In this document: positions 10,568-64,000 of the stretch, in pieces
How positions within the stretch are numbered: the stretch's first letter is position 1
Layout of the letters: each line of letters starts with the position of its first letter
Notes under the pieces: generated by a model
The model's input: only the letters and a program-made list of their open reading frames with translations
Told to the model about the DNA's origin: nothing
Database searches by the model: none
NCBI GenBank assembly: GCA_977018835.1
Contig: OZ361258.1
Coordinates: 1,302,001-1,366,000 of the forward strand
Direction: 5' to 3'
From: Minutocellus sp. GHC0000111
Lineage: Eukaryota
DNA: 64,000 nucleotides
Translations under genes and position numbers: made by a program

Positions 10568-11464
10568 TCAAATGTCATCAAGTTCCATACTCAGCTTATC
10601 TTGATCTTCGGGATGCGGTGCGTGTTGATCTAGGCCATCTAGGCTTGTAGCTGGATCGGTGAGTTCCGGGAAAGGTAGAAATAAGATGCCGTTCATTGGG
10701 TCATCATCAGTGGCCGAGGAAGATCCGAAGGGAAGCAGAGACGGGACGTCACCCGTAGGGTTTGGGGTCGATTTATGCCCCTGAGCAAAGGAGTTGCCAA
10801 TGGTACTCGTAGGAGGAAGAGTGCTACCCCTTAGGGTTGGTGCCCATTCATGCCCCTGAGCAAGGGAGTCGAGGTTTGGAGGAGCAAGGAGGGAGGCCAT
10901 AGGAGCCGAGAGCCTCTCATAGGGGAGCAGAGTACATGTAATCACACTGTGAGGCGAGAACAGGTGATCAGCCCTTGAGGCAGCGGCGTCATTCACGTCA
11001 ATCGTCGCTTCGGCCATATTGTTAGGCGGTGAGAGCTGAGCATCTAACACACCATTGATGGGCGATTTGAGCAGAGCCTCGACATCGATTTCCTCCTCGG
11101 CAGCGATGCGAGCTTCTTCCTCATCGGCAGCTTCGCGCTCAGCCGCTTGCTTCTTGAGTTTACGTGTAACGTCGTTGAATCGCTGAAGAATCTTTTGTAT
11201 GGCTTCTTCTTCATTGAAGATAATCCACCCCCCTTCTTTCTTCTTCTTGGCAACAAATCTCGCCGAAAGTTCGCCAATAATATGCGCAGCAATCTCCCGT
11301 TTCCTGGGATGATGCCTGGTTTCCAGGCGGCTGTACTCGTCGAAGTATTGTTCGACGAGGACGAAGTAGCGACGCGTCCCCGTCGTCCAATCGCTTCGTT
11401 GCTTTGATATGACGACATCGTCGTCGAGAACAGGGCCGTTGAGAGGAGTTTTACTTGCTTGCAT
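10568..11464 (-). CDS. Hypothetical protein with a divergent DUF6824-like N-terminal domain
   Basis: DDVV..GTRRYFVLVEQYFDEY..KREIAAHII..ARFV..GWIIFNEEEAIQKILQRF matches the spacing pattern of the diatom-expanded DUF6824 domain. The ORF is intact (298 aa). Confidence 0.6.
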   Translation of the reverse strand: MQASKTPLNGPVLDDDVVISKQRSDWTTGTRRYFVLVEQYFDEYSRLETRHHPRKREIAAHIIGELSARFVAKKKKEGGWIIFNEEEAIQKILQRFNDVTRKLKKQAAEREAADEEEARIAAEEEIDVEALLKSPINGVLDAQLSPPNNMAEATIDVNDAAASRADHLFSPHSVITCTLLPYERLSAPMASLLAPPNLDSLAQGHEWAPTLRGSTLPPTSTIGNSFAQGHKSTPNPTGDVPSLLPFGSSSATDDDPMNGILFLPFPELTDPATSLDGLDQHAPHPEDQDKLSMELDDI

Positions 11465-12464
11465 CTTGCTTGAGTATATCTACGAGTTCGTTCAGGATTC
11501 AAAAGCTTCATATCTATTTCCATGTAGTGTGGAGTGCGGTCAAAAAAGTGAAACATCGATAACAATGGCAAGATGCAGCACGTAAGTACAATGTGAGTTG
11601 TTGGAAAATAAAGAATGCATCGTATATCTTCGCGAGGACACAGATCAGCACGCGGTGCGAGAATCCTACGTCGAGTCACGGATATGCAATTGCATGGCGA
11701 GCCTGAACCGACAAAAATATCAGGAAATGAAAGTAGGTATTCGAAATAAAGCTGGTCGTCACCAGTAGCTTCCGCACACGCCGCGGTAATATCAATCAAA
11801 ATACCATGCACTTACATTGCCATACTACGTAGTATTGCTAATACTTTTTCAAGTCGTCGGTGGGATCCGAGTTTCGTCCGAGCCGAGTGAGTCTCGTCCG
11901 ATGGCGATGGAAACTGAAAAACTGAAACTGTTGGTTGCTTTGAACGTCATTTTGAAACGTCATTTTGTCATATTACAAGTAACCACGACTCAGATTTTTC
12001 GCTTTGAAGAGCTCGCGTTCTTAATCTCACGGAAACAGGATTTCTTCGAGGTCTCAAGTCTGCAAAATAATTTTTCTCTGGTAATCAAGGTCATTTCTGC
12101 TGACTCATTTTACTTTTGACTCGCTCGACTCTACTCTGTTCAGGGATCGCTTCAACGGAAACGGATCGCTTATGACTAATTCTAGCTGTGACGGAGTCTC
12201 GGCTCCGGCATCCGGGTTACCTTGACCAAGGTTTGCAGGCACCTGCCAAAGATCCCAGCTCAAGGCAGGCTAAAATCTAAGCAAGCTGTGACAACAGAGA
12301 AGAAACTGAATGTCGCAAGTGGACGTCCTAAATGGACGTCCACATGTGACAAACAGGCCTTCCTGCTTTGAGCCTCAATCCCACTTGGGCGAACGAAACA
12401 CATCGATCGCGGCTGCAATCAACATGTGGTCGACCAAGCCACAGTCAGACCACCCTCTCCTCTG

Positions 12465-13320
12465 CTAAAAGTAAAAGCAATCAACAACCTTCGCACTAGT
12501 GCACCTGTTCGCTGTCCTCTTTTGTTTTTGGCGGCCCACAATGCGAGATGCCGAAACAACCTCCTCATGGTTTTGCACTCCGAGCTGACCGATCGACGAT
12601 CCAATGGACCCCAAGACTCTGCTGCCCGTGTCTTCTTGCAAGGAGGACACAAGCTCGTCGGACGCGACGAGAAAAAGGTGATGGAGAAAAACATCTGCAA
12701 CAATTTCCTGTTTCCTGGGATGATGTTTGGGTGTCAGACTGTTGTGCTCGTCGAAGCATTGTTCGACGAGGACGAAGCAGCGACGCGTCCCCGTCGTCCA
12801 ATCGCTTCGTTGCTTTGACATGGCGCGACGGGGGGCGTCGTCGTCGCGGCGAACAGGGCCATTTAGAGGAGTTTCACTTGCTTGCATCTCTTGATGAGCA
12901 GATCTGCGCGGATTGAATTGGTTCAGGACTCTCAGGGCCTGCATGCAGTGTCAAGTGCGGCAGCAAAAACAGAAATCGATTACGTGGGCAAACAAATGGA
13001 AAGATCCAGTGTGCATGCAGTGAGAGCAAAAAGAATGCAGCACCACAATTGTTCACGAGGGCACGGATCAGCAAGTGGCTTTTTTTCGTCGAGTCACGGA
13101 GAGATGCAATTGCATGGCGATCCTGCCTGAACCAACAAAAATAAATCAGGAAGTGGGAAAGCAAGAGAGGAAAATGCTGCGCAGAAAGCGATGGCACGCA
13201 GTTTTCCATGAGCTCCCCAGGCGCTGCTGCTGGTGACAATCTTCACTTACATGGTGGTTGTTGCTTTTTCAAGTCGGTGGATCATCGGCAAGCCCTCCGT
13301 TCTTCGTCCGATGCGATGGC
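12465..13320 (-). pseudogene. Degenerate tandem duplicate of the DUF6824-like gene 5' part and its upstream region (copy of ~11280-11910)
   Basis: MQASETPLNGPV..SKQRSDWTTGTRRCFVLVEQCFDEH..HHPRKQEI aligns with MQASKTPLNGPV..SKQRSDWTTGTRRYFVLVEQYFDEY..HHPRKREI. Upstream blocks are shared (tcgagtcacgga, atgcaattgcatggcga). Similarity is lost or frameshifted after ~12690. Confidence 0.85.
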
Positions 13321-13742
13321 GCGCGTGATGGCGTGTGCATCGCAAGGATAAAAATGAGACGGCTGAACGCGGGGGGTCGCGAGGTTTGAGACTTTTTCCT
13401 GACATTACCACAGCGTTTTCGCCGAGCTCTCCATGACGTGGTCCAAAATTGGTGGTAACACTAGTATGAGTTTCTGCCACGTCAGTTCGGGTTGTTCAGG
13501 TTCAAGGATCAGGGCAAAATAGTCGAGCGAGTCGAATAGTAAGCACAAAAAGCGCTTGACCGTTGCTTTTTCATCTGTTGTTGGCGATGCATGCGCCGAG
13601 CCGAACGCAATCATACGAAAGGTACTGACTACTACAATTGTACGTAGCTAGAAAAGGTACAAAGCATGCATGGCATTGCCAAAGCAAAAAGGGCAAGGTG
13701 AAAGTCAAAAGTAGTTTGTAGATTTAGCACCCACCCAATTTC

Positions 13743-16613
13743 ATGTATCTCTCCGATGGTGAGAACGAGGCGCCGCCGCCACCGCTTCCGGACCCATCCG
13801 GCGGCAGCCTGCGAACCAACAGCCGCGTCGGCGGGGGCAAATCGCCCCTCCTCCTCAAGCTCAAGAAGGGCGCCATCGGCAACAGCAGCGCCAGCACTCT
13901 CAGCAGCAGCCGGGGCCGGTCGGCCATGAAGTCCCCTCCAACCACGTCCACTCCCACCTCGGCCACGCAGAGGGCGGCCGCCCGCAAGGCCAGCGGCACC
14001 CGCCGCCGCAGCTCGAGCCGCACCCGTTCGGCGAGCGTCGATCCCAGCGGCAGGATCGCCACGGCGTCGTACGTTCGCCAAAGTGCCACCGCCGCTGCCG
14101 CTGCGTCTTCTAGCGCAATTAGTGCCAGTAGTGTCAGTAAGAACAAGAGCAGCAGGCGCACGTCGTCTTCCTCTGCCGGTATCCGGGCATCCTCCTCGCG
14201 GAGCATTGGCAGCAACGGCAGCGGCAGCACGTCGTCGGTGCGTTCCAGGTCTTCGTCGAGGTCCAAGACGAGATCGTCGTCGTCTCCTGCTGCTGCGCCA
14301 CCGGCACATCCATCGGCATCGGCCCGAAAGAGCGAACTGACCAATGACGTCGCTTCTACATCGAGAGGGAGCGATCCACCGGGTCCCATGGCCGCCGTCA
14401 CCCGACGACCCGGCGGGAGCAGGAGGGGCCCGTCGGCCTCGGCGTCGCCGGGCAAGGAAAGGATCAAGAAGCGGGCCGAGCGGGAAAGGCAGAGGCAGCG
14501 GCTCTCCCTCGAGGAGCGGCAGATCGTCGAGGCCGTCCAGCAGCAGAGGGTGGTGGCTGCCGTCGCCGCGTCGCTTCTGGGCACTCCGCCTCGTGCTGCG
14601 ACTGCAAGTGCAAATGCCGGTGCCAGTGCTACTCCCGGCAGTACTACTTCATCGGCACCCAAGTACGTCAATCAGTCCCCCGAATTGGCCAGGAAGCCAC
14701 CAACCACGGAGGGATCGTCGCCCGTGGTCAATGACAAGAAGACCCCCTCGCCTGTTCCCAGGTATGTGAATCAGTCTCCCGAACTGGCCAGGAGGGAGGG
14801 GTCGTCGTCGCCCGTTGCTCCGGCTGGAGAGAGGAAACCCATCGATATCGATGCGGCCGGTCACTCTCCTTCTCAATCTTTGGTCATTGGTGGCAACGAC
14901 GTAAAGGCTGAGGATGAGGTCTGCACTACAAAAACCAATACCAATGATGCTATCGGGGCTCCTAAAAAAGACGACGATGATAACATCGAAGCCACTGACA
15001 CTGGGAGGGACGATGATCAAATCGCTCGCAGCATTGAGGCGTCTCCGCGAATGGAGGAGCCCAACGACGCCATCCCACCGGCCCTCTCGAGTATGGTCGA
15101 AGAGAAGACTCCGGAGGAGGAGGCTCCGGAAGAGGCAGTTGAGAAACATGAGACGGTCAAAGGCGCCGGAGTGGGTGAAATCACTGAGGAAGTGCCCATC
15201 GATGACAAGGAGGATGGTGGTGGTGATATTATGAATGGTGTTCCTACCCAAGCCATCGATAACGATGACGATCTGGATACTCCCGAGGAGAAGGACAACA
15301 CACCTGCCGATGATAAAATTGGGCATAATGTTGATGATGATAATGATCACCAAGATGACGAATCAGCTGCTGGTATTGAGGATTCGATCGCTGCGGCCCT
15401 GTCGCTGCTCAATGCGCCGGCGTCCATTGGAAGTGATGTGGTCAAGAGCAAATCATTCGACGATGCCGATGAAGGTACCACCGAGGAAGTTGTCGCCACT
15501 GCCGATAACGGTGCTGCCCCCGTGGAGCTGGAAAATGGGTGGACTGGCACCGTTACTCTTCAGGCATCCCCTACAGACAATGAGAATAACGATGCTACGT
15601 TGCCTTCGGCTGTTACTGAATCTGAGAACGAGGGAAAAGATATCAAGAGCAAAGCTGTAGACGAAGCTATAGGTACCAATACTGAAGACATTGAGGGCAC
15701 GATAACGATGCCCACCGAAGAAACGTTTGACGATGACGTCAAGATTACCAACATCGAAGGAGCGGTGGACAGTAATCAAGAGAAGGTGGAGTCGAATGAT
15801 GATAATGATGAAGGAGAGAAGCAATCGGATTCTTCAGAGAATAGTTCATTTGATTTGCCTTCGGATTCCGTTGATGAATCGGTTCCTGAGCCTACGTCGA
15901 GTGCTGGCATGAAAAGAAAGGATGGAGCGTTGGAGAATGGAGATATTATTGCAACACCGCGGAAGAAGATGAGCGGATTGCGAATTGATGTTAGCGATAG
16001 CGCCAATAACGGCATGGCACAGCATCCCGATTCCAACGTCTCGGCTTTGGCATCTCCCAGCGCCAGTGAATTGATTGAGCACTTTGAAGCCAAAAGCCCG
16101 AAGGCTGGATCCCATGGATTTGTACCACCATCGCCGAGAAGTGCGGCAAACAAAGGCGTGCAGGGTGCCTTGTCTCCCTCGCGTGAGCCATTCCGTTTTG
16201 GAGCACCTCCGTCCAAGCCAGTACCGGCCAACCAACTTGTCGTCAAGACGCCACCTCGCCATCCACCCTCGAGGGGGGGCAATCCTGGATCCCATGCCAC
16301 CTATGACTATCCGCAGCGTGTCCAGTCGCCCAAGTGGGCCAACTCGTTGTCGCAGAGCATTGCCAAGGGTGTATGTGAGACTCAGCAATCACCGCGGAGC
16401 AACAATGAAAGCAGCGGTGATACCGAACGCATTCTATTGGAAATGAAGAAGATGGAATTGCGCATCGAGGCCCGCATTCTCCACATGGAGCAGCATCTAG
16501 AGAAGCAGATGAGGTCAAAGTTCAAATATCTTGAGGCCCGAATGGACGAGAGGATGGATGAGATCCAGGCCTCCCTTCAGGTCCTCCTGGCCAGGGACAT
16601 TACCGAGATTTGA
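13743..16613 (+). CDS. Large low-complexity protein (S/R-rich N-terminus, acidic middle, C-terminal coiled coil)
   Basis: 956-aa ORF; duplicated motif P(K/R)YVNQSPELAR; heptad pattern at the C-terminus. Confidence 0.75.
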   Translation: MYLSDGENEAPPPPLPDPSGGSLRTNSRVGGGKSPLLLKLKKGAIGNSSASTLSSSRGRSAMKSPPTTSTPTSATQRAAARKASGTRRRSSSRTRSASVDPSGRIATASYVRQSATAAAAASSSAISASSVSKNKSSRRTSSSSAGIRASSSRSIGSNGSGSTSSVRSRSSSRSKTRSSSSPAAAPPAHPSASARKSELTNDVASTSRGSDPPGPMAAVTRRPGGSRRGPSASASPGKERIKKRAERERQRQRLSLEERQIVEAVQQQRVVAAVAASLLGTPPRAATASANAGASATPGSTTSSAPKYVNQSPELARKPPTTEGSSPVVNDKKTPSPVPRYVNQSPELARREGSSSPVAPAGERKPIDIDAAGHSPSQSLVIGGNDVKAEDEVCTTKTNTNDAIGAPKKDDDDNIEATDTGRDDDQIARSIEASPRMEEPNDAIPPALSSMVEEKTPEEEAPEEAVEKHETVKGAGVGEITEEVPIDDKEDGGGDIMNGVPTQAIDNDDDLDTPEEKDNTPADDKIGHNVDDDNDHQDDESAAGIEDSIAAALSLLNAPASIGSDVVKSKSFDDADEGTTEEVVATADNGAAPVELENGWTGTVTLQASPTDNENNDATLPSAVTESENEGKDIKSKAVDEAIGTNTEDIEGTITMPTEETFDDDVKITNIEGAVDSNQEKVESNDDNDEGEKQSDSSENSSFDLPSDSVDESVPEPTSSAGMKRKDGALENGDIIATPRKKMSGLRIDVSDSANNGMAQHPDSNVSALASPSASELIEHFEAKSPKAGSHGFVPPSPRSAANKGVQGALSPSREPFRFGAPPSKPVPANQLVVKTPPRHPPSRGGNPGSHATYDYPQRVQSPKWANSLSQSIAKGVCETQQSPRSNNESSGDTERILLEMKKMELRIEARILHMEQHLEKQMRSKFKYLEARMDERMDEIQASLQVLLARDITEI

Positions 16614-26020: not shown

Positions 26021-27218
26021 TACGAGGTCGCGGACAGCAGTTTCAGGGACCCGGTTTTCGGGTCTATGGGCAAAATCTCATAAAAATCAGCACAAACGCA
26101 CGCAGCAAGCAGCATTTATTTGCTATCGTCCTGTCTTCAAGATGGCGGTGACGGCAGTGCCGACGGCATCCGCTTCACGCAAGGGATAAGCGTGGTATCT
26201 CCAGAACGGGTTGGTCCTTGACCTTGGACCGACTCGGAGACATCGATTTCATCTTCCCATGCCAGCGTCTGTCTGGCCGATTCACCCCATCCATCGCCCC
26301 TCCCGACTTCTGCCAGTTTTTCCGATGACAACCGGTCACCTCCTCCACCTCCCGACCCCACCACCACCTCCCAAATGCATTGATTCAAGTAGCCATATGG
26401 TTTGAGCTCCGATATCGGTCTCCATGGTCCCCATAATGGCGTGTCTCATGCGGTCCGGGTGACCCCGCGCCAAAATCGAGCGGGAGACTTGCCACGAATC
26501 GTAGAGGCATCGATGGTGCCGCTCCGATGGACAAAATAATCAAAGCATGGGATGGAGCTGCCGGACCGACGGGAGCGGCGACATGCTGGCGCATCAGCTG
26601 CGGTGGCAGCAGCAGTAACAGCCATTTGCATTAATATGGTGTTGGATGCAGTATTTTGTGGCAGTAGAGCAACAGTTTGTATGTCGGGTGGGTTGGAAAT
26701 GAGGAAGGTTTCATTGAGTGGCGGGCGCGCCGGGCGGGTGATGATTTTTTTTGGCCCGCTCGATTTTGGCGCGGGGTCACCCGGACCGCATAAGACACGC
26801 CATTGTGGGGACCATGGAGACCGATGTCGGAGCTCAAACCATGTGGCTACTTGAATCAATGCATTTGGGAGGTGGTGGTGGGGTCGGGAGGTGGAGGAGG
26901 TGACCGGTTGTCATCGGAAAAACTGGCAGAAGTCGGGAGGGGCGATGGATGGGGTGAGTCGGCCAGACAGACGCTGGCATGGGAAGATGAAATCGATATC
27001 TCCGAGTCGGTCCAAGGTCAAGGACCAACCCGTTCTGGAGACACCACGCTTATCCCTTGCGTGAAGCGGATGCCGTCGGCACTGCCGTCACCGCCATCTT
27101 GAAGACAGGACGACAGCAAATAAATGCTGCTTGCTGCGTGCGTTTGTGCTGATTTTTATGAGATTTTGCCCAAAGACCCGAAAACCGGGTCCCTGAAACT
27201 GCTGTCCGCGACCTCGTA
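26021..27218. mobile_element. Non-autonomous Tc1/mariner-type foldback element: 462-bp TIRs (26023-26484; 26755-27216), 270-bp spacer, TA target-site duplication
   Basis: TA|CGAGGTCGCGG ... CCGCGACCTCG|TA. The arms are reverse complements with 9 mismatches. No transposase ORF. Confidence 0.9.
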
Positions 27219-28330
27219 CATGTGTTATGCCGCCGCCCCCTTCGCTCTTCGCCGCCTTCGCCTTTGCTTCATCCAACACCATGATTTCCTTCTGATTCGC
27301 CTGCCGCTAACTCGATAGTCCGGCGGACATGCTGCCGGCCGGGGTCTCCGCTCGGCAGGCGTGTCTACCAGTACCAGTAAGGCCGCCTTCTTCCATGATG
27401 TCGTCTCGATCTCCAAGGCTCAACAGCAGCAGAAAAAGTGTCGTGCCTTGGCGGGCACTTGCGACCTGGAGCAGACCCTGACCAAGCTCCAGCCCACTGA
27501 CGTTACCTACTTTTCGTCCCGCTCACTTGAATTTGGATCAAGTCTCGATTTTGGCGCGGGGTCACCCGGACCGCATAAGACACGCCATTGTGGGGACCAT
27601 GGAGACCGATGTCGGAGCTCAAACCATGTGGCTACTTGAATCAATGCATTTGGGAGGTGGTGGTGGGGTCGGGAGGTGGAGGAGGTGACCGGTTGTCATC
27701 GGAAAAACTGGCAGAAGTCGGGAGGGGCGATGGATGGGGTGAGTCGGCCAGACAGACGCTGGCATGGGAAGATGAAATCGATATCTCCGAGTCGGTCCAA
27801 GGTCAAGGACCAACCCGTTCTGGAGACACCACGCTTATCCCTTGCGTGAAGCGGATGCCGTCGGCACTGCCGTCACCGCCATCTTGAAGACAGGACGACA
27901 GCAAATAAATGCTGCTTGCTGCGTGCGTTTGTGCTGATTTTTATGAGATTTTGCCCAAAGACCCGAAAACCGGGTCCCTGAAACTGCTGTCCGCGACCTC
28001 GTACATGTGTTATGCCGCCGCCCCCTTCGCTCTTCGCCGCCTTCGCCTTTGCTTCATCCAACACCATGATTTCCTTCTGATTCGCCTGCCGCTAACTCGA
28101 TAGTCCGGCGGACATGCTGCCGGCCGGGGTCTCCGCTCGGCAGGCGTGTCTACCAGTACCAGTAAGGCCGCCTTCTTCCATGATGTCGTCTCGATCTCCA
28201 AGGCTCAACAGCAGCAGAAAAAGTGTCGTGCCTTGGCGGGCACTTGCGACCTGGAGCAGACCCTGACCAAGCTCCAGCCCACTGACGTTACCTACTTTTC
28301 GTCCCGCTCACTTGAATTTGGATCAAGTCT
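26759..28330. repeat. Tandem duplication of a 785-bp unit (right TIR plus the 5' part of the FG-GAP gene)
   Basis: 26759-27545 recurs at 27544-28330 (offset 785); the copies appear identical. Confidence 0.95.
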
Positions 28331-30625
28331 TGTCATCGACGGCGATTGGATGGTAGCCGGCGCCAACCAGAACTCGACCAGCCCCCCTACGAAGCCATCT
28401 GGATCTACAAGTGGGACGGATCGGATTGGATCTTTCATCAAAAGATCGAGTTTCCCTTGGGTGACAACTGGTCTGGGTTTGGGCGCCATGTCGCCATATA
28501 AGTGGTGACACCATCGCGGTTGGTGACAACGAGAAGCATGTGACGGGGAAAGGCTCTGTGCATGTCTACCGGCTTGACACCAGCGACAACGACACCTGGA
28601 AACAGGAACAGAGAATTCAAAACACGGCTTCTACTGGAGATTGGTACGGCGATCAACTCTGTCTTGAGGGCGACACCCTGATTGTTCCCTCCAGAAACGA
28701 GGCCAGTAATCGAGGTGCGGTTTACGTTTATGAGAGAGACTGCTCCTCTAGCACTTGCTCCTGGGGTCAGACTCAAAAGTTTACTGGGGAGAACTCCAGT
28801 GATGGATTCGGAAGCGGCGCTTTCTTGTCTGGAAACACTCTCTTCCTCGGAGCACCACATGCAGATGACAACGGCCTCACGGATCCCGGGAAAGTGCACT
28901 ACTATACAAGAGCCCAGGCCGGAGGTCAGTGGACTCTCCAGCAGTCGTTCACTCCACCCAGTGCAATGGCAGATGACAGGGCCGGACAAATTCTTGCTTT
29001 CGACGGAGAGACCCTTTTCGTTCCGAGTTGGAGTCGTACAGTTGATGGAGTTTGGGGAGTCGGTTATGGCTGGATCTTCGAGCAAAACTCCAGCGGGGAG
29101 TGGGAGGTGACGCAAGAACTTGAAAATCCCTCAGGGGCGGGTGGCATCTATTATGGAGCCTGGAGACCGTCCATTCGTGGCGATACCCTTGTAATTCCCT
29201 CCAGAGCCGGAATTGACGTATGGAAGAAGACAGGTGGTATTTGGGCCCTGGAAAAGGTCCTACCAAAAAGCGGGGAGGACTGTGAAGCCACAGCATTCCA
29301 CGACGATTCTCTTGTCTTCTCTTGCGAAGCTACCGACGGAAGGAAGGGCGCCATCTACTACCTCACTTGTCCCGATGCATTTACGGCAGCTGCAGCTGAT
29401 AGTAGTAAGTTGCATTCATTTCCTTTCAATTCCATTATTCCTCTCATGTTTCTTTGGCATTCTTCTTACCCATAGTCTACCTCTCCCACTTTGCTATCAT
29501 TATTCATCTATGTCAGGTGATGCCAGTGCCGGTGGCAGTACAGGAGGTGTTGCCACAGGCCCCACCCAAGTCGGAGAGTGGTGGGATCCTACCGCCTGGG
29601 ACGTCACGCCGTACCTGACGGCCACGTGCGCCGCCAGCTTCGTCGAGTGCTGTAACGGCTTCGTCTGCGATGACGACGGCGTCACTCCGACCTCCACCAC
29701 CTGCCAGGCAGCCTGCGCCGGTGACTGCTGCGACAGTAGTGGCGACGGCAGCGGCGCCGATGCCTGCGTCCGCTTCACGGGCAGGGTGTGCAAGGACGGG
29801 TCCTGCACGGGCAATGCCGCCTGCGTCGACGCGTCCATATCGGAGATCATCAACGGCTGCCAGGGCGGCTGGGCCTGCCACTGTCTTTTCGGGAGCGATG
29901 CGCTCCATTTCACGTTTTCCAGCTGCAGCCCTCTCGGCAGCGATGCGCTCCATTTCACGTTTTTCAGCTGCAGCCCTTTCCGCATCGAGAAGTTCTATTT
30001 CCATACGAATTCTCTCGGCCTCAGCCTTCTCGGCGGCTCTACTTGCAGCAACTGATACCGATTCTTCTGCTAGGGTGTGAAGGACATCTTTTTTCCGTTG
30101 TAGCTCAGTGGTTCTATTTGAGGCTACAGATGCCGAATCCTTAGCAATGGCATGCAACATCTTCTTTTTCCTTTGTATTTCAGCGTTTCTTCTGGAAGCT
30201 ACAGACGCAGAATCCTCAGCAAGGGCCTGTAGAGTACTTTTCTTACGGTCGACTTCACGGGCAGGGTGTGCAAGGACGGGTCCTGCACGGGCAATGCCGC
30301 CTGCGTCGACGCGTCCATATCGGAGATCATCAACGGCTGCCAGGGCGGCTGGGCCTGCCACACGGTGGCGCACAACAACGGCGGTGCGCCCGTCCCTCAC
30401 GTGCACAATTCCTGCCGCAGCGTCCAGCAGGCGTGCCAGGGCATGGCCAGCAATGGCGGCAAGGTGGGCAGCGTCGTCAACAGCTGCAACGCCAACCCCG
30501 ACCCCGCGGCGACGGACCACACGACCGTGGACTGGGACGGATCCCTCGTGTACGACAAGCAGTGCTACCGCGTCGGCTGGAAGGGCCGGGTGGGCGACCT
30601 CGTCGATTCCTGCGCGGGCGACAAG
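28146..30625 (+). pseudogene. FG-GAP-repeat beta-propeller plus Cys-rich domain gene, disrupted by frameshifts at ~28385 and ~28499, an insertion at 29882-30252 and truncation at ~30625; intron ~29405-29516
   Basis: FGSSLVIDGDWMVAGA, FGRHVAI/SGDTIAVG, YGDQLCLEGDTLIV..GAVYVYER, FGSGAFLSGNTLFLGAP; then TCQAACAGDCC..ACVRFTGRVCKDGSCTGNAAC. Confidence 0.8.
29881..30257. repeat. 377-bp copy of 44814-45190 (same orientation), flanked by a 109-bp direct duplication (29773-29881 = 30253-30361)
   Basis: Direct alignment at offset 14933; only two mismatches seen, both near the left junction. Confidence 0.95.
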
Positions 30626-43270: not shown

Positions 43271-46200
43271 CTACGAGATCACGCGACGGAAGGTAATGGT
43301 CTTCTTTTTGTTCTTCCTTCTGCCTCCTGCCTTTTTCTTGAGAAGGGATATGATGCTGGCATACGGATAATCCTTCGAGCTAACGTCAACTCCATCAATC
43401 GCGACAACAATGTCGCCAATACTGATAACGCCCAGCTCAAAGGCTTGACTTTTGCCAGATTTGGAAAAATCAGCAACGCAGCAGCCGCATTCCTTTCTAT
43501 TTCCCTTGGAGGTGCCTGTAGCTGTGACGGGATCGAGTACCATGCCGAGAGGCTTGGAAAAGTTAAACTCAACAGAATAAATTTCTTCGGCATCGTCGTC
43601 GGAGTCTTCGATATCTGATAAAGGGCGGCGGAACTTGATTAGTCTGCTCGCAGGTACCTTATCCTGGTTCGCCGTCGGTCTCTTTAGCATGGCAATAGTG
43701 TTGGCATACTCGGAGCCTTCCACGCTTTGTCCATCGATTTCAACAATAATGTCACCAGGTTGGATTTTCCTCGAGTCTCGAGCTTGATTCACCTTGCTCG
43801 CAGAAAAATTGAGCACGTGGCAACCCATTGTTTCTGTGATTGGCTCGAGAATCATGCCGAGGGGCTTTGAAGAGTTGAACTCTACGGTGTACGCTTCCTC
43901 TTCATCTTCTACGGACGATTGGTCATCGGCAGAGGAACGGCGGAACTTGATACTTCGGCCAATGGGTTCCCCATTTGAGCTCATCCTTGGCTTCTTTAAC
44001 AAAGCAATGCTTTGGGAGTACTTGCAGCCGTCTACGTTCTGCCCATCGATCTCGACGATGATATCACCGGGCTTTATTTTTCCTGAATCACGAGCTTGAT
44101 TGATCTTGCTCGCAGAAAACCCGAGCACATGGCATCCCATCTGCAGCACTGACTTTCCCTCCTGAACAAGTGTGATGGGTTCAAGCTTCATTCCCAGTGG
44201 GCCGGGAGCAAAGTGGACTTCAAAGGTCGATTCTGACGAATCATCTGGCTCTGTGATCTTTGGAGCCGATTTCGGTTTGGATCTCGCTACTGCGGCGACG
44301 ACGAATAAGGACGCGTGCACAAATCTTGCCATCGAGCCACTAACCGTATCCTCTTTCTGCTGCTGCTTCTCTACTATTGCCTCTGCCTCATTCTCGCTCG
44401 GAGCCTTTGTTGTTAATGAAGTTATAAGATAGAACAACGCCATTGGTTAGTTGGTGCGAATGAATCAGATGGAATGACAATGTCTCTGTCATAAAGACGA
44501 AATAAGATATATCATTGACTCACCTTGGCGAGGTCCTGCTTGGGTTCCTCTCTTAGTTGCACCTCGATCTCAAGGATCTCGGCATCGCCATATTTCTCGG
44601 CAGTGACGCGTTCCATTTCCAACCTATCAGCCTCTGTCTTCGCGGCAGCCACGGGCTCCATTTCAAGCCTCTTGGCTTCTGCCTCCTCGGCGGCGACGCG
44701 TTCCATTTCAAGCCTGTCAGCCTCTGCCTTCGCGGCAGCCACGCGCTCCATTTCAAGCCTCTTAGCTTCGGCTTCCTCGGCGGCGACGCGCTCCATTTCA
44801 AGCCTATCGGCTTCTGCCTTTTCGGCAGCGATGCGCTCCATTTCACGTTTTCCAGCTGCAGCCCTCTCGGCAGCGATGCGCTCCATTTCACGTTTTTCAG
44901 CTGCAGCCCTTTCCGCATCGAGAAGTTCTATTTCCATACGAATTCTCTCGGCCTCAGCCTTCTCGGCGGCTCTACTTGCAGCAACTGATACCGATTCTTC
45001 TGCTAGGGTGTGAAGGACATCTTTTTTCCGTTGTAGCTCAGTGGTTCTATTTGAGGCTACAGATGCCGAATCCTTAGCAATGGCATGCAACATCTTCTTT
45101 TTCCTTTGTATTTCAGCGTTTCTTCTGGAAGCTACAGACGCAGAATCCTCAGCAAGGGCCTGTAGAGTACTTTTCTTACGGTCGACTTCAAGCTTTGCCT
45201 CAGCTGCCACTTCCGCGGCAACAACTGCCTCCTTTGCCAAGATGTGAAGCGTCTGTCTCTTCTGCTCAAGTTCTTCCTCCTGCACTAGCTCACGTCGTTC
45301 TGCTTGTTCCTCAAGGGCCTTAAAATAAAATATAAAGAGGATTTATTTGGTGGTATGGCGATAGCAATTTGAGAAGAGAGTAAGATATTATTTCATCCAC
45401 AGGCATAAATCATGAAACATTCATCAGCAATGTTATGCGTACCTTGGCTGCTTCCTCGAACTCAGATTCTCTCAGCCGCCGCTCTTTATCTGCTTTCTTT
45501 GCGTCCTCCTCCATTTGTTTCAGCTCATTGAAAATCTGCGAGAGCACTTCCTTCTCATTCTCGATAGCAATGTCCATATCGATCTTGTCTCGGACCTCGT
45601 CTCCTTCGTCGGCCGTTTCTTCGTCATCTGCATCTTGAGACAACAAATGCAAAATACTGTCCTCGTCGATCGAATTGGAGTCCTCGGTCTGTTCAGACTT
45701 CCAATCACGAAGCGTGAGTGACTCGTCCTCGGCGTCTTCAACGTGAGCAATATGCTCCCGGACAACTTCGGGGGTAGCCACAGGCACATACGTGTAGTCG
45801 GCTTCACTCCCATTGCTCTTACATGTCGACTCGTCGGCCTCCTCTTTCGTAAACGACTTGGTGAAGGCTGAATATAGTTGCTGAAAATCATCAAACTGGG
45901 GAATACCACCGGACGCAGAGTCAGAATCACTTTCAAAGGTAATTTCTTTGACGGGTGGTCCATTAAGGATGGGATCAGGCTGAGCCGTGCCGCTGCCAAT
46001 CTTGTTGTCGATGACCAGACTCTGATTGGGATGATCTTCTTTCTTCGACGGAGGGAGTAGATGGCCGACTGACTTTTGAACAAGATGTTTGGCAATGAGC
46101 GACTGGTTCCGGCAGAGACGTGAAACCTCCTCGGCGCCTTCCTCATAGATTGCTCGAACATCGTTTATGGCGCTCTGGAGGAGGACCGGCTCGCGCTGGT

Positions 46201-58809: not shown

Positions 58810-59239
58810 CTTCGCTTCGGCTGATTGAGTAAGGGCCCGGGCGGCCTCTATTGTTTTCCGGGTTCTGAGCCGAGGGCCGATTTAGCCGTGTTCCTGGCGA
58901 CCCGCGGCAAAATTGAAAGTAAAAATATAGGGCGATGAATGTTCATATGTTAGCAGGTTTTGATTGAGAGGGTTGATGCATGGGTAGGGTTGATGTGGCC
59001 TCTCTTTACCAACAAACACCCTTTGGCACTTTGCTGGAATGTTGTTTCTCTCCGCTGCATCTGCTGCACGGGAGTGTTGGTAACAAGTAAGTAAAAGTGA
59101 CTCTGTGAAGAGCCTGCCTGTTTGATGATTCTGTTTGTTTTGTGCCTGGCTAGCTTGCATTTTTGGCTAATAATTTAGGTCTCTGATTAGGTTTGCTCTC
59201 CATGCCGGATTGGCTATTGCTTGTTCGAGTTCTTCTTGG

Positions 59240-60870
59240 CTCATTCGGAACTTTTTACACCAGTCCAACACTGCCTCTGGCGTGTCTCCTTCCTGGCTGG
59301 AGAGAGAGCTAGCTGCATTCCCACGGTGTTTGCTTCGACTCGTGCCACCCACTTGTTCCTTAGTTGAACTTTTTCATATTCATCCCCGTTCTTTTTCAGT
59401 TTCAAGTTTGTCACTCTGTGCAAAGTCATGTTGTGCCCTGTGAAGTAGATGGCTGAGTTGAGACTTGGTGGTGGATGAACTCGGTCGGTGCGCCGGGGTG
59501 GTGGTGCTGCTGCTGCTGCTGGTGTTCTCGCCAAGTGTTGTTGCCCTTGACACTGCCATGTAGAGCAGGCCAGGGTTTCCTGACTCGAACTTTTTGTCTC
59601 CTGGGTCAACAAATACTCTGTCAACTGCGTTTGGCTGTTGGCCTTGGTTCACTGGTCCGGCTGACTGCCCCCTTCTTGGAAGGAAGGTGTGAAGCAAGTG
59701 AGTGTCATTTTGCAAAGGGGAGGGCTAGAGGGCAGAACGTAGCTTTGCAGCACTTGTTCTTGCACATCATTGTCACCATGGGAATCGGCACTACCTGTTG
59801 CATGCTCATGGGGGTGGTAGTTTGGGTGTAGGTGTTGGGAACTGTTGGGTTAGCAAATGGTTGGTGTTTTGGCACATGATGAGGGGGTTTCTGTGATGTC
59901 ACCGTGATGACGCTCATTCCAAGACAGTGGCAACATCCACTGTGATGGAACTCTCACGATTGCATGCAGTGACTTCACTAGTTGCTCACCTTTGGTTTCT
60001 GGGCATCCCATGCTGGGCCACTGTACTGTGGAGAAACTTGACTGTGCAATGTAGCAAGGTTGGTCGCCAGCATTTGGGTTGTCTCCATCGTTGAACACAA
60101 TTTCCTCAACTTCTCCTACACTGTTGTTGTTGTTGTTGTTGAAAAAACAGTCCCCCCACTCAGGCTCAAAGTTGTGGTTTGACAAGCACACCATATGGTC
60201 CCTTTGCTGAGGATTGTTGCGTTAACCGGAAGATTTGGAAAATTAGCTTTGCACACCTTCGCCTTTCCCCTTGTTGACTCCCACCTTGTCTTGATTAGAG
60301 CAACAGGGTTGTTCGCACTTGACACCTCTCTTGCAGCTTGCCCCGCGGCAGTTAAACTCGTTTTTGGACTTTTTGAATGCAAACAAGTGCATGGTTGTGC
60401 CAGTCTTTGTTATGGCATTGACTTCAGTGTTGCTGAAGTTTGCAAGATGGTAGTTCATTAGTTCACTTGCGTCGGCTGGAGTTGACTCCCCCACTCTCAT
60501 TCGACGGAGAATGTCGATGATGATGATGAGCTTTTTCTGGTCGTTTTTTTGCCTCTTGATGGTCCTTAGTGCCATGCATGTTTCTGACAAGTCTAAGAAC
60601 AGTTGTGCACCAGTGGCAGCAACCCCGGTCTTCTGCTGTGACAGGGAGGGTTTTCCACCTAGGACATCAAAGGCCACTTTTTGCGTGTTTGTTGGTGGCG
60701 CGGCAGTTGGATGATGATGATGATGATGATGACGACGTCGTCCACTGTCCCTGAGAGTTCTTCGGCACTGCATGTTTATGTGTGCATGGTGTGATTTAAG
60801 TTCAAAGTGTCGAGTAAGAGACATGGTGAGTGCCTTTGTCATGTAGCAATTTGAAAATGAGTCAAACAAA
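59240..60870 (-). pseudogene. PIF1-like SF1 helicase remnant of the Helitron
   Basis: TGVAA, DILRRMRVGE, VGEVEEIVFNDGDNP, FCPLALPFAK..HTF..GQSAG, NPGLLYMAVSRATTLG. Confidence 0.8.
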
Positions 60871-60979
60871 TGCCGCCGGCGACTATGTCACTACTAACGG
60901 TGTTTCCATAAAAGTGGCGGCGGCGTCCACTCTTCCGGAAAATGGTCCCGTTTCTTGTTGATCCCGATTTGGCACATAC

Positions 60980-62467
60980 CTCATGATGATCGTTTTCAAT
61001 GTTTCGCGCTCGACAGCGAGAGTTTCATTGCCTTTGCGGGCGTATGCAACGACGTAGTCAGTAACCTCTGCGATATCTTCTGGTGTGGGTTCCCCTTCGT
61101 GACAGTCATATAAGAGGATATTGATGTCGCAATTGCCACGCCAACCTCGCAGTGCATGAAGTGGGGTTTGTATCATCCGGAGACTATTCCGTTTCATTTC
61201 GAGCTTGAGGAAGTCGCGATCGTCTCGGGTAATAGCATGATCCGAGCGCAATTTGAAACCTGGTGTATCGCATTTGTTCTTGGTGGCTTCATATCCCGCG
61301 CCAGCTCGACAGTATCGACATTTTGCCGATGGCTTGTCGGATGAATTCGTTGTTGGTGCCGATGCGTCGCGTTGCGTTTCGTTCTTGTTTCGTCGATGAT
61401 TTCGCATGCAGTAGCTACCGCATTTGTGATGTTGGCACTCGAAGCAGAGCTGCTTTTCATCCTCGCGATAGTCAGATACATCCCCAAGCCTTCTTTTGCT
61501 TGCACCCATGTTTGGAGTTACGTCCCTTGGATTGCGATGGAGAGGAAAGCGAGGTACGTGAGAATTGCAACCTGATCATGATGCGTGTTTGATTGTAAAT
61601 ATGTTTCTCGAACTCACCCATTGTTACCATTTACCGATGATGTCATGCCGAATATTCGTTCTGCCCAATCTCCTACCAATTTGGATTGGTCAGCGTGGCT
61701 TCTACCTCCGTCATTAAGTTCGTCCTGGAGATCCTTTGTTATCTTTTTATTGAGGATAGCGAGAAGATGAAGATGGATCTGACCTCTGCCCTTGGCGAAT
61801 TCGATCCGCCCCCAGTAATGTTCTATGCCGAATACCTCTTTGCCCACGGTATTCAGGAAGTCTTCTGCCCTTTTGATAAAAAATTGCTGTATGACGAGGG
61901 CGTAATCATTGGTGGCTTTGTTTCTATCGGTTCTGTTGTTGGTGAGATCGATTTTGCGGCCATCTCGATATAACACCGTGTTCCATGGACCGTGTTTTGA
62001 CCCTCAGCGATCCATATTCGTTCCTCCAGGAGCCTCAGCATGTCTGGCCAGAAATATTCGGAACAAGAAAGGGTCATGAACAGATCTGGTGGCCCATTCC
62101 CGGCCTCGATATGATGAGATATCCAGGTGTATAATTTGGCACGTTCGGCTCTCCAAAAAGAGTCAGATCCTCGTACTCTTTTACTGTAAAAAATGAGTTT
62201 ACTGACGAAGGATGAGTCGCCGCTTTCGAGCTGTTCTTTGAGCTCGTCCAGTGATTTGGGTGGATCGTAAATGTGGGTATTCACGAAGTACTTCCCGTCG
62301 TCATTGTTTCGGTGTCGCTGAGAATAATTATATGCAAAGAAGCACCAGAGCTTATCTCTCTGAAATCGTCCATCGGACTGTCGAAGAAGATGACGAGCCC
62401 AGTTGGAGGCATCAATGTCTGCCTCGCGATCCATGTCTCGAAAATCCGCAACTCCTCCTGGAAACAT
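60980..62467 (-). pseudogene. Helitron Rep (HUH endonuclease) domain; frameshift at ~61975; intron ~61527-61617
   Basis: FPGG..WARHLL..DGRF, RVRGSDSFW, GPPDLFMTLSC..WPD, YWGRIEFAKGRGQIHLHLL, GWRGNCDI, DYVVAYARKG. Confidence 0.9.
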
Positions 62468-63158
62468 TGACGGTAAGATTCAAGCTGCACTCGTTGCATG
62501 CGGAGCATATTTCATGATGAATGTTCGTCATTCTTGACTCGAATCGAAATATCGGAACAAGTACTTTCTGTTCTGAATAAGAAGCGGATCGGAATGCCTC
62601 TCGGTTGATAGAATAGCGGTCGTCTTTTTGAGTGAACTTGTGCAATTTTTGCCTAGCCGTGGCAATTAATGTCGTTGCTCGCCCTATTAATTCCTTGTAG
62701 TTGGAATCTGACTTAGCGTAAAATGGATCACTGTCACCTAGGTCGACGTCTAGTTCAATAGATTCTTCCCATAATTTTTGGACATGAAGAGCGTCGTAGT
62801 CCCTGAGACGGTCGTGGTAGGGAGGCTTCATGTCTATCCTAGGAAGCTTTTCTCTCTCGGCAGTCCGCTTCCTGGCACTCCTGATGTTTTGTAGTCGCCT
62901 CTTTTCGCTTTTTGACACCTAAAAGGAACACAGTTGTAAATCGGCATCACATTTGTTCAGGTGAGTAATTGGTTGAGGCGACGCAATTCCGGGACAATGG
63001 CATTGGACACTATCATGGAATTAGTGCTTGATGATGCATATTAGTGGTTCACATTACAATTACCTGGTTTTTCTTCCTCTTTAGGTTGCCGGAGCAAGGC
63101 ACGCAAATGCCACCGCGAAGATGAACGTTGACAGTGACGGTGGACCCATTGTGCATGC

Positions 63159-63737
63159 CTAATTGCCAAACTTTTGCATTGGAGTACTCTCGAGGAGCTT
63201 TGAACTGCACGATGTGTACATTTCACTTGCAGGTATCGGCAATTTTTCTGACACCAGGGTGACAATCATTTTGTGAAGAGACTTGGCAGTGTCATTAATG
63301 TAGACACAGGTTTGGGTAACAGACCCATCAGGACACTTGATGAATATCACCCATTTGTGGTTCTTCTGGTTCACCACATGGATTGTGCAACCGTCATGCA
63401 TGCCCAAGCAATGCAAGGGAACATCAATGTCGCAATGGTTGCCGCGGAAAAGGGAACCAATGCACCAACAGTCCTCGTCCCAGTCGTCGTCTTTGAGCTC
63501 ACCCTCAATTTCCTTGTAAGCAGCTTCCTCAATGATCCCCCACAGATTGACACCTTTGAGTTCTCGTGAAACTTCCAATTTCAGAACGCATGGCGGTGTC
63601 CGACACCTGTAAAATGGCTGGAGTTCTTTCTCTTTCCCAAAAGGGACTAGGCCTTCGCACGTGACGTGACGAGGAATTATGACATCAATGTCCCACATGG
63701 GCTTGAGCACAGCCTGGAGATCAGTCTTGATCCACAC
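63159..63737 (-). pseudogene. Degenerate ubiquitin-like domain(s) in the Helitron 5' region
   Basis: IFIKCPDGSVTQTCVYINDTAKSLHKMI..EKLPIPASEMYTSCSSKLLE aligns by eye with the ubiquitin pattern IFVKTLTG..VEPSDT..EGIPPDQQRLIFAGKQLE. Confidence 0.5.
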
Positions 63738-64000
63738 CTACCTTGCAGGGTGACCTAAGGGTGGTTTTTGACCTCATTTTTTTGCAGTGCCTCTTGACAG
63801 GCCTCGCCTCACTGCGGCAGACAGACTTGCCATTGTCAGTGTTTCTGGCGGCACAAGTGACACCTGAAATGACTTCATCGGAACATCAAGCGGGATAAAC
63901 TTTAGTGCACACACCACATGGGGTCAGTGATGAGGGGCTCTCCTTTCACCACCACCTTGCCCTTGTTGTCTAAACTGGCACTTGGAGTCACTTCCAGAGC

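Follow-up and report, generated by a model that had tools for sequence, protein, structure and literature searches.

In Bigelowiella natans, two integrated viral regions mutate at ~1000 times the rate of the remaining DNA, by changes that are almost exclusively TpA>TpG/CpA (Mettrop et al., 2026 preprint, bioRxiv 10.64898/2026.01.13.699255). According to the portions of that preprint used here, 230 of 231 hypermutations in mutation-accumulation lines were A>G or T>C at TpA, the process was active in some lines only, the targets were integrated NCLDV and virophage DNA, TE domains were enriched among TpA-poor genes, and an ADAT2 homolog was proposed as a candidate (bioRxiv 10.64898/2026.01.13.699255). 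Fungal RIP is also a dinucleotide-specific transition hypermutation of repeated DNA that acts on both strands; it makes TpA from CpA and alters both duplicates (PMC2621366). In diatoms, 5mC and CpG decay (DNMT5) are limited to silenced mobile DNA and are unable to remove TA (PMC9998398). TadA-derived adenine editors have a 5' pyrimidine preference, with C as well as T before A, and a modelled substrate TAC (PMC7056309), and natural TadA acts on tRNA (bioRxiv 10.64898/2026.01.13.699255).

We analysed a window (i.e. the whole 64,000-nucleotide stretch of contig OZ361258.1) in which an earlier note had described a gene duplicate that lost TpA. Besides a DUF6824 protein, the window encodes a chlorophyll-binding protein as well as further proteins that carry an ASAF-type leader, all of which we take to be diatom marks; the host is likely a diatom. 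A literature search on DUF6824 gave no papers. The features of the locus are the following (strand given where assigned):

10568 to 11887, minus strand: copy A, the intact spliced DUF6824 gene (Pfam PF20710, E 3e-6), composed of an ORF at 10568-11464 (start inferred), an intron at 11514-11815 (GT..AG) and an upstream exon at 11816-11887
12110 to 12192: degenerate inverted pair enclosing the repeat and copy B, left arm (tentative)
12188 to 12681: dispersed high-copy repeat adjoining the distal end of copy B, defined by depth, loose ends and a variant table
12501 to 13400: TA-depleted domain, 5 TA where ~27 are expected at the window average and 49.9 from composition (O/E 0.10)
12687 to 13365, minus strand: copy B, a truncated, degenerate duplicate that covers the 5' part of the gene together with sequence homologous to its intron
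12743 to 12822: 80-base tract of copy B equal to 11332-11411 but for its four TA sites (ungapped alignment)
13455 to 13542: right arm (tentative) that pairs with 12110-12192

Copy A is expressed and spliced, as RNA contigs of two studies (X6, X10) skip 302 bases at 11513/11816, and its intron has the termini GTAAGT..AAATAG. Copy B lies ~750 bases from this intact parent gene and spans the upstream exon, the intron and ~60 codons; since it contains the intron, it is a DNA-level duplicate. Homology extends over 11276-11933 and 12687-13365, with ~84 % identity in trusted alignment columns and a background divergence of 15-25 %. RNA contig cover of copy B was absent in X6 and X10, a result that we did not count as silencing since such contigs are unable to prove absence. 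Sequencing depth over copy B is at the single-copy level, and an assembly error is ruled out by contigs of two data sets: those of run X2 across 12673-13771 have 0 letters different from the window, and those of a second study, X5, match 12652-12764 and 13081-13771 (~800 bases of copy B and right flank) with 0 other letters and one gap. Because the source sample may itself be X2, the independent confirmation is that of X5.

That the TA loss is linked to repeated or mobile DNA, as previously proposed, is borne out by the fusion of copy B to the high-copy repeat and by the presence of the bias in an inverted repeat and a Helitron family (see below). Repeat depth reaches ~18x baseline by bin, depth being a rough guide to copy number, and loose ends before 12188 and behind 12681 indicate that other repeat copies have different flanks. 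The repeat also contains a hairpin at 12306-12356 with 23-base arms (83 % complementary) and a 5-base loop. The inverted pair formed by 12110-12192 and 13455-13542 has a score that was reached by 3 of 500 shuffles, for intervals chosen after the seed had been seen; tentatively, copy B would then be a piece of a gene situated inside a transposon-like element.

The ten sites originally listed are indeed all TA in copy A and read CA (8) or TG (2) in copy B. We counted dinucleotides under five scoring schemes, using an anchor rule that relies on flanking bases and ignores the dinucleotide itself. At the 9-10 anchored TA sites, 0-1 were kept, 6-7 became CA/TG and 1-3 underwent another change, whereas non-TA dinucleotides were kept at 73-78 % of 231-263 anchored sites (Fisher p 3e-4 to 3e-6 vs TA). 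Transversions account for 1-3 of the 9-10 anchored TA sites, some of them adjoining gaps; the proportion of transitions to transversions (6-7 vs 1-3 at anchored copy B sites, 7 vs 1 in the arms of the inverted repeat near 26 kb) is blurred by old divergence and gaps. Changes of T to C from copy A to copy B depended on context (TA 10/36, TG 3/67, TT 5/69, TC 4/78); GA and AA contexts were not above background, CA was not raised either, and no general AT>GC bias outside TA was seen between the two copies.

In composition, copy B is the outlier of the pair, with 5 TA and O/E values of 0.13 (TA), 1.44 (CA) and 1.32 (TG). The parent copy A is spared and has no TA loss, its 36 TA giving O/E values of 0.77 (TA), 0.99 (CA) and 1.06 (TG). 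TA is under-represented over the whole window (O/E 0.54), and 12501-13400 is its lowest-TA 900-base stretch, with a Poisson p of 3e-7 vs the window-wide O/E and of 2e-5 after 71 windows, for a region originally picked by eye. TA returns to normal from 13401 (O/E 0.68-0.78 at 13401-13850), which places the domain edge near 13400. In line with the earlier note, CpG is spared in copy B, though part of the mobile DNA of the window has lost it. CpG was kept at 17-18 of 23-26 anchored sites of copy B, like other dinucleotides, and C to T changes by context (CpG 5/83, CT 5/53, CC 3/35) revealed no CpG excess of the 5mC type.

The clearest contrast between the copies comes from the tract 11332-11411 / 12743-12822, whose 4 differences per 80 bases occupy 4/4 TA sites and 0/72 other bases (p 4e-5; Fisher p 4.6e-6 for the tract vs the upstream block). 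Copy B appears mosaic-like in this region (11276-11411 / 12687-12822), as it shares residues with copy A against the homologous protein P0002 within the tract, and with P0002 or P0004 against copy A just downstream of it. The mosaic suggests gene conversion from copy A, and a conversion of the tract with TA mutation afterwards is possible.

The direction of change was assessed from homologous proteins, which keep Tyr, Ile and Lys at coding TA sites. Copy A carries K5, I19, Y33, Y40, Y44 and I62 at its six coding TA sites, where copy B has E, M, C, C, H and V, respectively. The copy-A residue is found in P0002 (67 % identical) at 6/6 of these sites and in the more distant P0004 (48 %) at 4/6 (K, I, Y, Y), the other two residues of P0004 being unlike either copy; P0004 is the safer outgroup outside the tract, where copy B may predate the A/P0002 split. 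As the homologs keep the copy-A residues, TA is ancestral, Cys/His are not, and the process is not RIP, in agreement with what had been supposed from the intact reading frame. The proposal of an A:T to G:C change on both strands is upheld as well. The TA loss of copy B is a polarised, two-strand, TpA-specific A:T to G:C change over a domain of ~1 kb, in which CpG is kept.

The same change is seen among copies of the repeat. We examined 28 variable repeat positions in X2. The repeat of the window has CA/TG where the family majority is TA at 12266 (73 %), 12354 (57 %), 12494 and 12587 (74 %), and two further majority-TA sites rest on a single contig. Site 12494 occurs as TA (61 %), TG (39 %) and CA (window), i.e. 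the three states expected if a TA is hit on either strand. The reverse pattern (TA in the window and a CA/TG family majority) was found at none of the variable positions of the repeat, and the seven TAs left in the window's repeat copy are without a variant at a frequency of at least 5 %. Separately, nine repeat positions (12234-12582) vary between CG and CA/TG among copies, so that CpG is unstable too in the repeat family.

Beyond copy B, the same TA bias recurs at two loci, i.e. an inverted repeat and copies of a Helitron:

26021 to 27218: independent inverted repeat, with arms at 26021-26484 and 26755-27218 that are 98 % identical and a 270-base spacer
59000 to 64000, minus strand: broken Helitron, with a core (61000-62900) of ordinary TA and CG and flanks poor in both

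The arms of the inverted repeat have 9 differences per 464 bases; of these, 8 lie in TA sites, which make up 26 bases, and 7 are TA vs CA/TG, though unpolarised; random placement reaches 7 such differences in at most 2.5e-4 of trials. One of the 8 TA-site differences is a transversion, and the lone non-TA difference lies in an AA/TT step. The element starts and ends with TA (TACGAGG...CCTCGTA), its arms being 464 bases long, and resembles mariner-type MITEs in this respect. Its right arm is included in a perfect 787-base tandem duplication (26759-27545 = 27544-28330) that is either very recent or an assembly artefact. Elsewhere, at 29773-30361, a 377-base piece 99.5 % identical to coding 44814-45190 lies between two identical 109-base direct repeats in another gene, as an ectopic insertion or a mis-assembly. 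Two coding tandem repeats served as a small negative control: at 43522-44140 (12 vs 9 TA) and 44563-44970 (4 vs 4 TA), no TA erasure was detected by eye.

For the Helitron family, protein copies were compared with their family consensus, using 15 listed members from each of three clusters (16, 17 and 30 members), after exclusion of four divergent-subfamily members of cluster 1 and of clusters 2 and 5 (5 and 6 members). Among 91 distinct departures from consensus we found 6 Y>C (expected 0.45-0.96), 6 I>M (0.85-0.88) and 4 I>T (0.9-1.9), with expectations taken from a relative's codon usage and records located mostly on megabase contigs, perhaps of other genomes. C>Y or H>Y numbered 0 (expected 0.7-1.6), as did Y>H, and L>S, L>P and V>A were not raised (2 vs 1.8-3.8 expected). 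The majority of the 91 events fall outside the TA type and are rich in transversions (43 vs 33), so that errors may be among them. When all members of all five clusters were considered, I>M, Y>C, I>T and M>I amounted to 7, 6, 5 and 2 of 120, respectively.

A metagenome scan for Helitron relatives returned 32 pattern matches that reduced to 2 loci. The relative L001 (~80 % identical overall) is likewise TA- and CG-poor in its upstream part (TA O/E 0.26-0.52, bases 1-1600). Polarising the Helitron flanks via an intact relative failed, both for this reason and because none of 19 proteins aligned to 59000-60900. The Helitron of the window (60800-64000) lacks ~266 codons at 62466-62476 vs P0005 and has a frameshift near 61972.

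The base that follows the adenine may also matter, as hinted by several counts that together point to a TAY preference. At sites where the two strands differ in their 3' neighbour, the adenine before a pyrimidine was changed at 10/12 informative sites (p 0.019), in a post hoc count made by hand that includes three unpolarised sites among the 12. In copy B plus repeat, with 14 hand-picked non-coding intervals as control (in brackets), the values were 0.07 (0.77) for TAT, 0.15 (0.92) for TAC, 0.20 (0.68) for TAG and 0.27 (0.51) for TAA. The Helitron flanks display the same split between TAY and TAR, and the TAs surviving in copy B are TTA or TAA in 5/5 cases.

Copy B is a broken duplicate of the host gene, joined to the high-copy repeat, and we propose that its TA steps were turned into TG or CA on both strands by a host enzyme that likely acts on TpA in silenced mobile DNA by deamination of the adenine. 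We give this overall explanation an even chance, and the deaminase step, taken by itself, seems equally apt to be right or wrong. The lesion may be an inosine formed from A and read as G at the next replication, and the enzyme may be of the ADAT2/TadA kind and TAY-preferring. Targeting could depend on the state of the transposon-like domain, in chromatin or in RNA, and not on duplicate pairing, and the function could be the inactivation of mobile DNA. As only the repeat-fused copy has changed, targeting likely follows the mobile-element domain state and not homology pairing.

Several findings count against parts of this proposal. Transversions, seen at some TA sites, are not a product of deamination; C before A is accepted by TadA editors (PMC7056309), yet CA is not raised in copy B; and the Helitron core is not TA-poor. 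The seven invariant TAs of the repeat copy and the lack of Y>H in the Helitron proteins count against it too. No deaminase was present among the 38 Pfam-scanned ORFs of the window. In the same ORFs, a match to N6-adenineMlase on the Helitron ORF was weak (E 0.08) and overlapped the Helitron domain, and it was rejected.

A>G at T[A] and T>C at [T]A are indistinguishable from sequence. Identical substitutions are predicted if a TET/JBP-type enzyme with the same targeting marked the TpA of repeats and the modified T either paired with G or was repaired to C. Modification of this type gives hydroxymethyl- or formyl-uracil, and TAY on one strand could just as well be taken as an RTA preference on the opposite one. 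We nonetheless consider a thymine-side lesion unlikely, as there is no such enzyme among the scanned ORFs of the window and the T-before-A rule matches the deaminase preferences described for TadA editors (PMC7056309). Error-prone repair synthesis of the polymerase eta type in methylated repeats, with G put opposite T, mostly at TA, would account for the few transversions at TA. The hot spot of polymerase eta is WA, and the one arm difference outside TA sites fits this motif; CpG loss is also present in mobile DNA of the window. Such repair is disfavoured by the narrow restriction to T before A with no excess at AA: the AA/TT context is at background in copy B (5/69 vs 3/67 and 4/78; small numbers), the arms near 26 kb have 8 TA changes vs 1 AA change, and the CpG of copy B has not decayed. 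We therefore regard it as distinctly unlikely.

Pairwise differences alone would fit both directions, and the inverted-repeat arms are unpolarised, so a RIP-like change of CpA/TpG to TpA in copy A was also weighed. Its probability appears close to nil, given that homologs carry the copy-A residues, that copy A is expressed, spliced and without a CA/TG deficit, copy B being the compositional outlier, and that C/H>Y is 0 in the Helitron copies. The choice of the region by eye, the divergence of 15-25 % and the window-wide TA O/E of 0.54 could all favour GC-biased conversion, pseudogene drift, chance, or an alignment or assembly artefact; we hold these to be very improbable, as there is no AT>GC bias beyond TA, the result is stable under five alignments, the pattern recurs at two other loci and independent contigs confirm the sequence. 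Deamination of the adenine of TpA in mobile DNA by an ADAT2/TadA-like enzyme fits most simply and is the reading retained below.

When compared with the systems described above, the locus is closest to that of B. natans, and the underlying process is very probably of the same kind. Both combine TpA>TpG and TpA>CpA on both strands with local domains of foreign or mobile DNA (bioRxiv 10.64898/2026.01.13.699255); here, a two-strand change of TpA to TpG/CpA with TA ancestral was found in a local domain with normal neighbours and a mobile-DNA target. The two cases differ in host (here likely a diatom), in target (here a host-gene duplicate with its repeat, small repeats and Helitron copies), in domain size (~1 kb vs 25-186 kb) and in evidence (comparative here, de novo rates there), and the portions of the preprint used here make no mention of a TAY preference (bioRxiv 10.64898/2026.01.13.699255). 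The earlier note implied novelty in finding no characterised pathway to match; the same signature had in fact already been measured in B. natans, though the enzyme is uncharacterised there also, as far as the preprint's text was available. That text gave 0 matches for diatom, Phaeodactylum or stramenopile (bioRxiv 10.64898/2026.01.13.699255), and our literature search, in which subscription journals were thinly covered, found no diatom report of TpA hypermutation.

With fungal RIP, the locus has in common a dinucleotide-specific, two-strand transition hypermutation of repeated DNA; the direction is opposite, and only the repeat-fused copy is altered here instead of both duplicates (PMC2621366). 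TA is lost, not gained, and copy A retains its TAs and an open frame. The label 'reverse RIP' is consequently a poor one, given that RIP mutates both duplicates and the parent gene here is without TA loss; the term did not occur among the matches listed in the literature search. The process is likened to RIP in purpose, yet departs from it in these defining features. RIP is further marked by a RID-type methyltransferase and premeiotic timing. The limitation of diatom 5mC and CpG decay to silenced mobile DNA (PMC9998398) is a shared trait, the Helitron flanks being CpG-poor here; such decay leaves TA in place, and copy B keeps its CpG. TadA/ADAT enzymes are similar in their A>G outcome and 5' pyrimidine preference, and differ in that the editors take CA as well as TA (PMC7056309).

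The feature is thus real and joins a kind of event that was described only recently and is mechanistically open, namely hypermutation at TpA in foreign or mobile DNA; it is not categorically new. What is new here is the likely diatom host, the targeting of a host-gene duplicate with its parent spared, the loss of TA without loss of CpG and the outgroup polarisation. With the parent gene unaltered at a distance of 750 bases, duplicate pairing as in RIP is likely not the means of targeting, and the locus adds the constraint that TA loss is possible without CpG decay. In these genomes, such a process skews GC content, the dating of repeats and the alignment of pseudogenes, and a natural DNA adenine deaminase with TAY preference would, if true, be of interest to base-editing research. 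In its widest and more speculative form, which we put forward as a possibility somewhat short of probable, diatoms may have a natural DNA adenine editor (TAY to TGY) aimed at transposon-like chromatin with roughly kilobase resolution, disabling pieces of host genes that mobile elements have captured but leaving the neighbouring parent gene intact, and sharing its ancestry with the Bigelowiella system as an A>G defence across SAR lineages. In diatoms that are genetically tractable, the enzyme could be tracked down by knockout. So far one preprint and one species represent the B. natans process, with no enzyme assigned (bioRxiv 10.64898/2026.01.13.699255, as consulted in part); that the same signature is seen in a second algal lineage, distant from the first, suggests that genome defence by A:T to G:C change is widespread.
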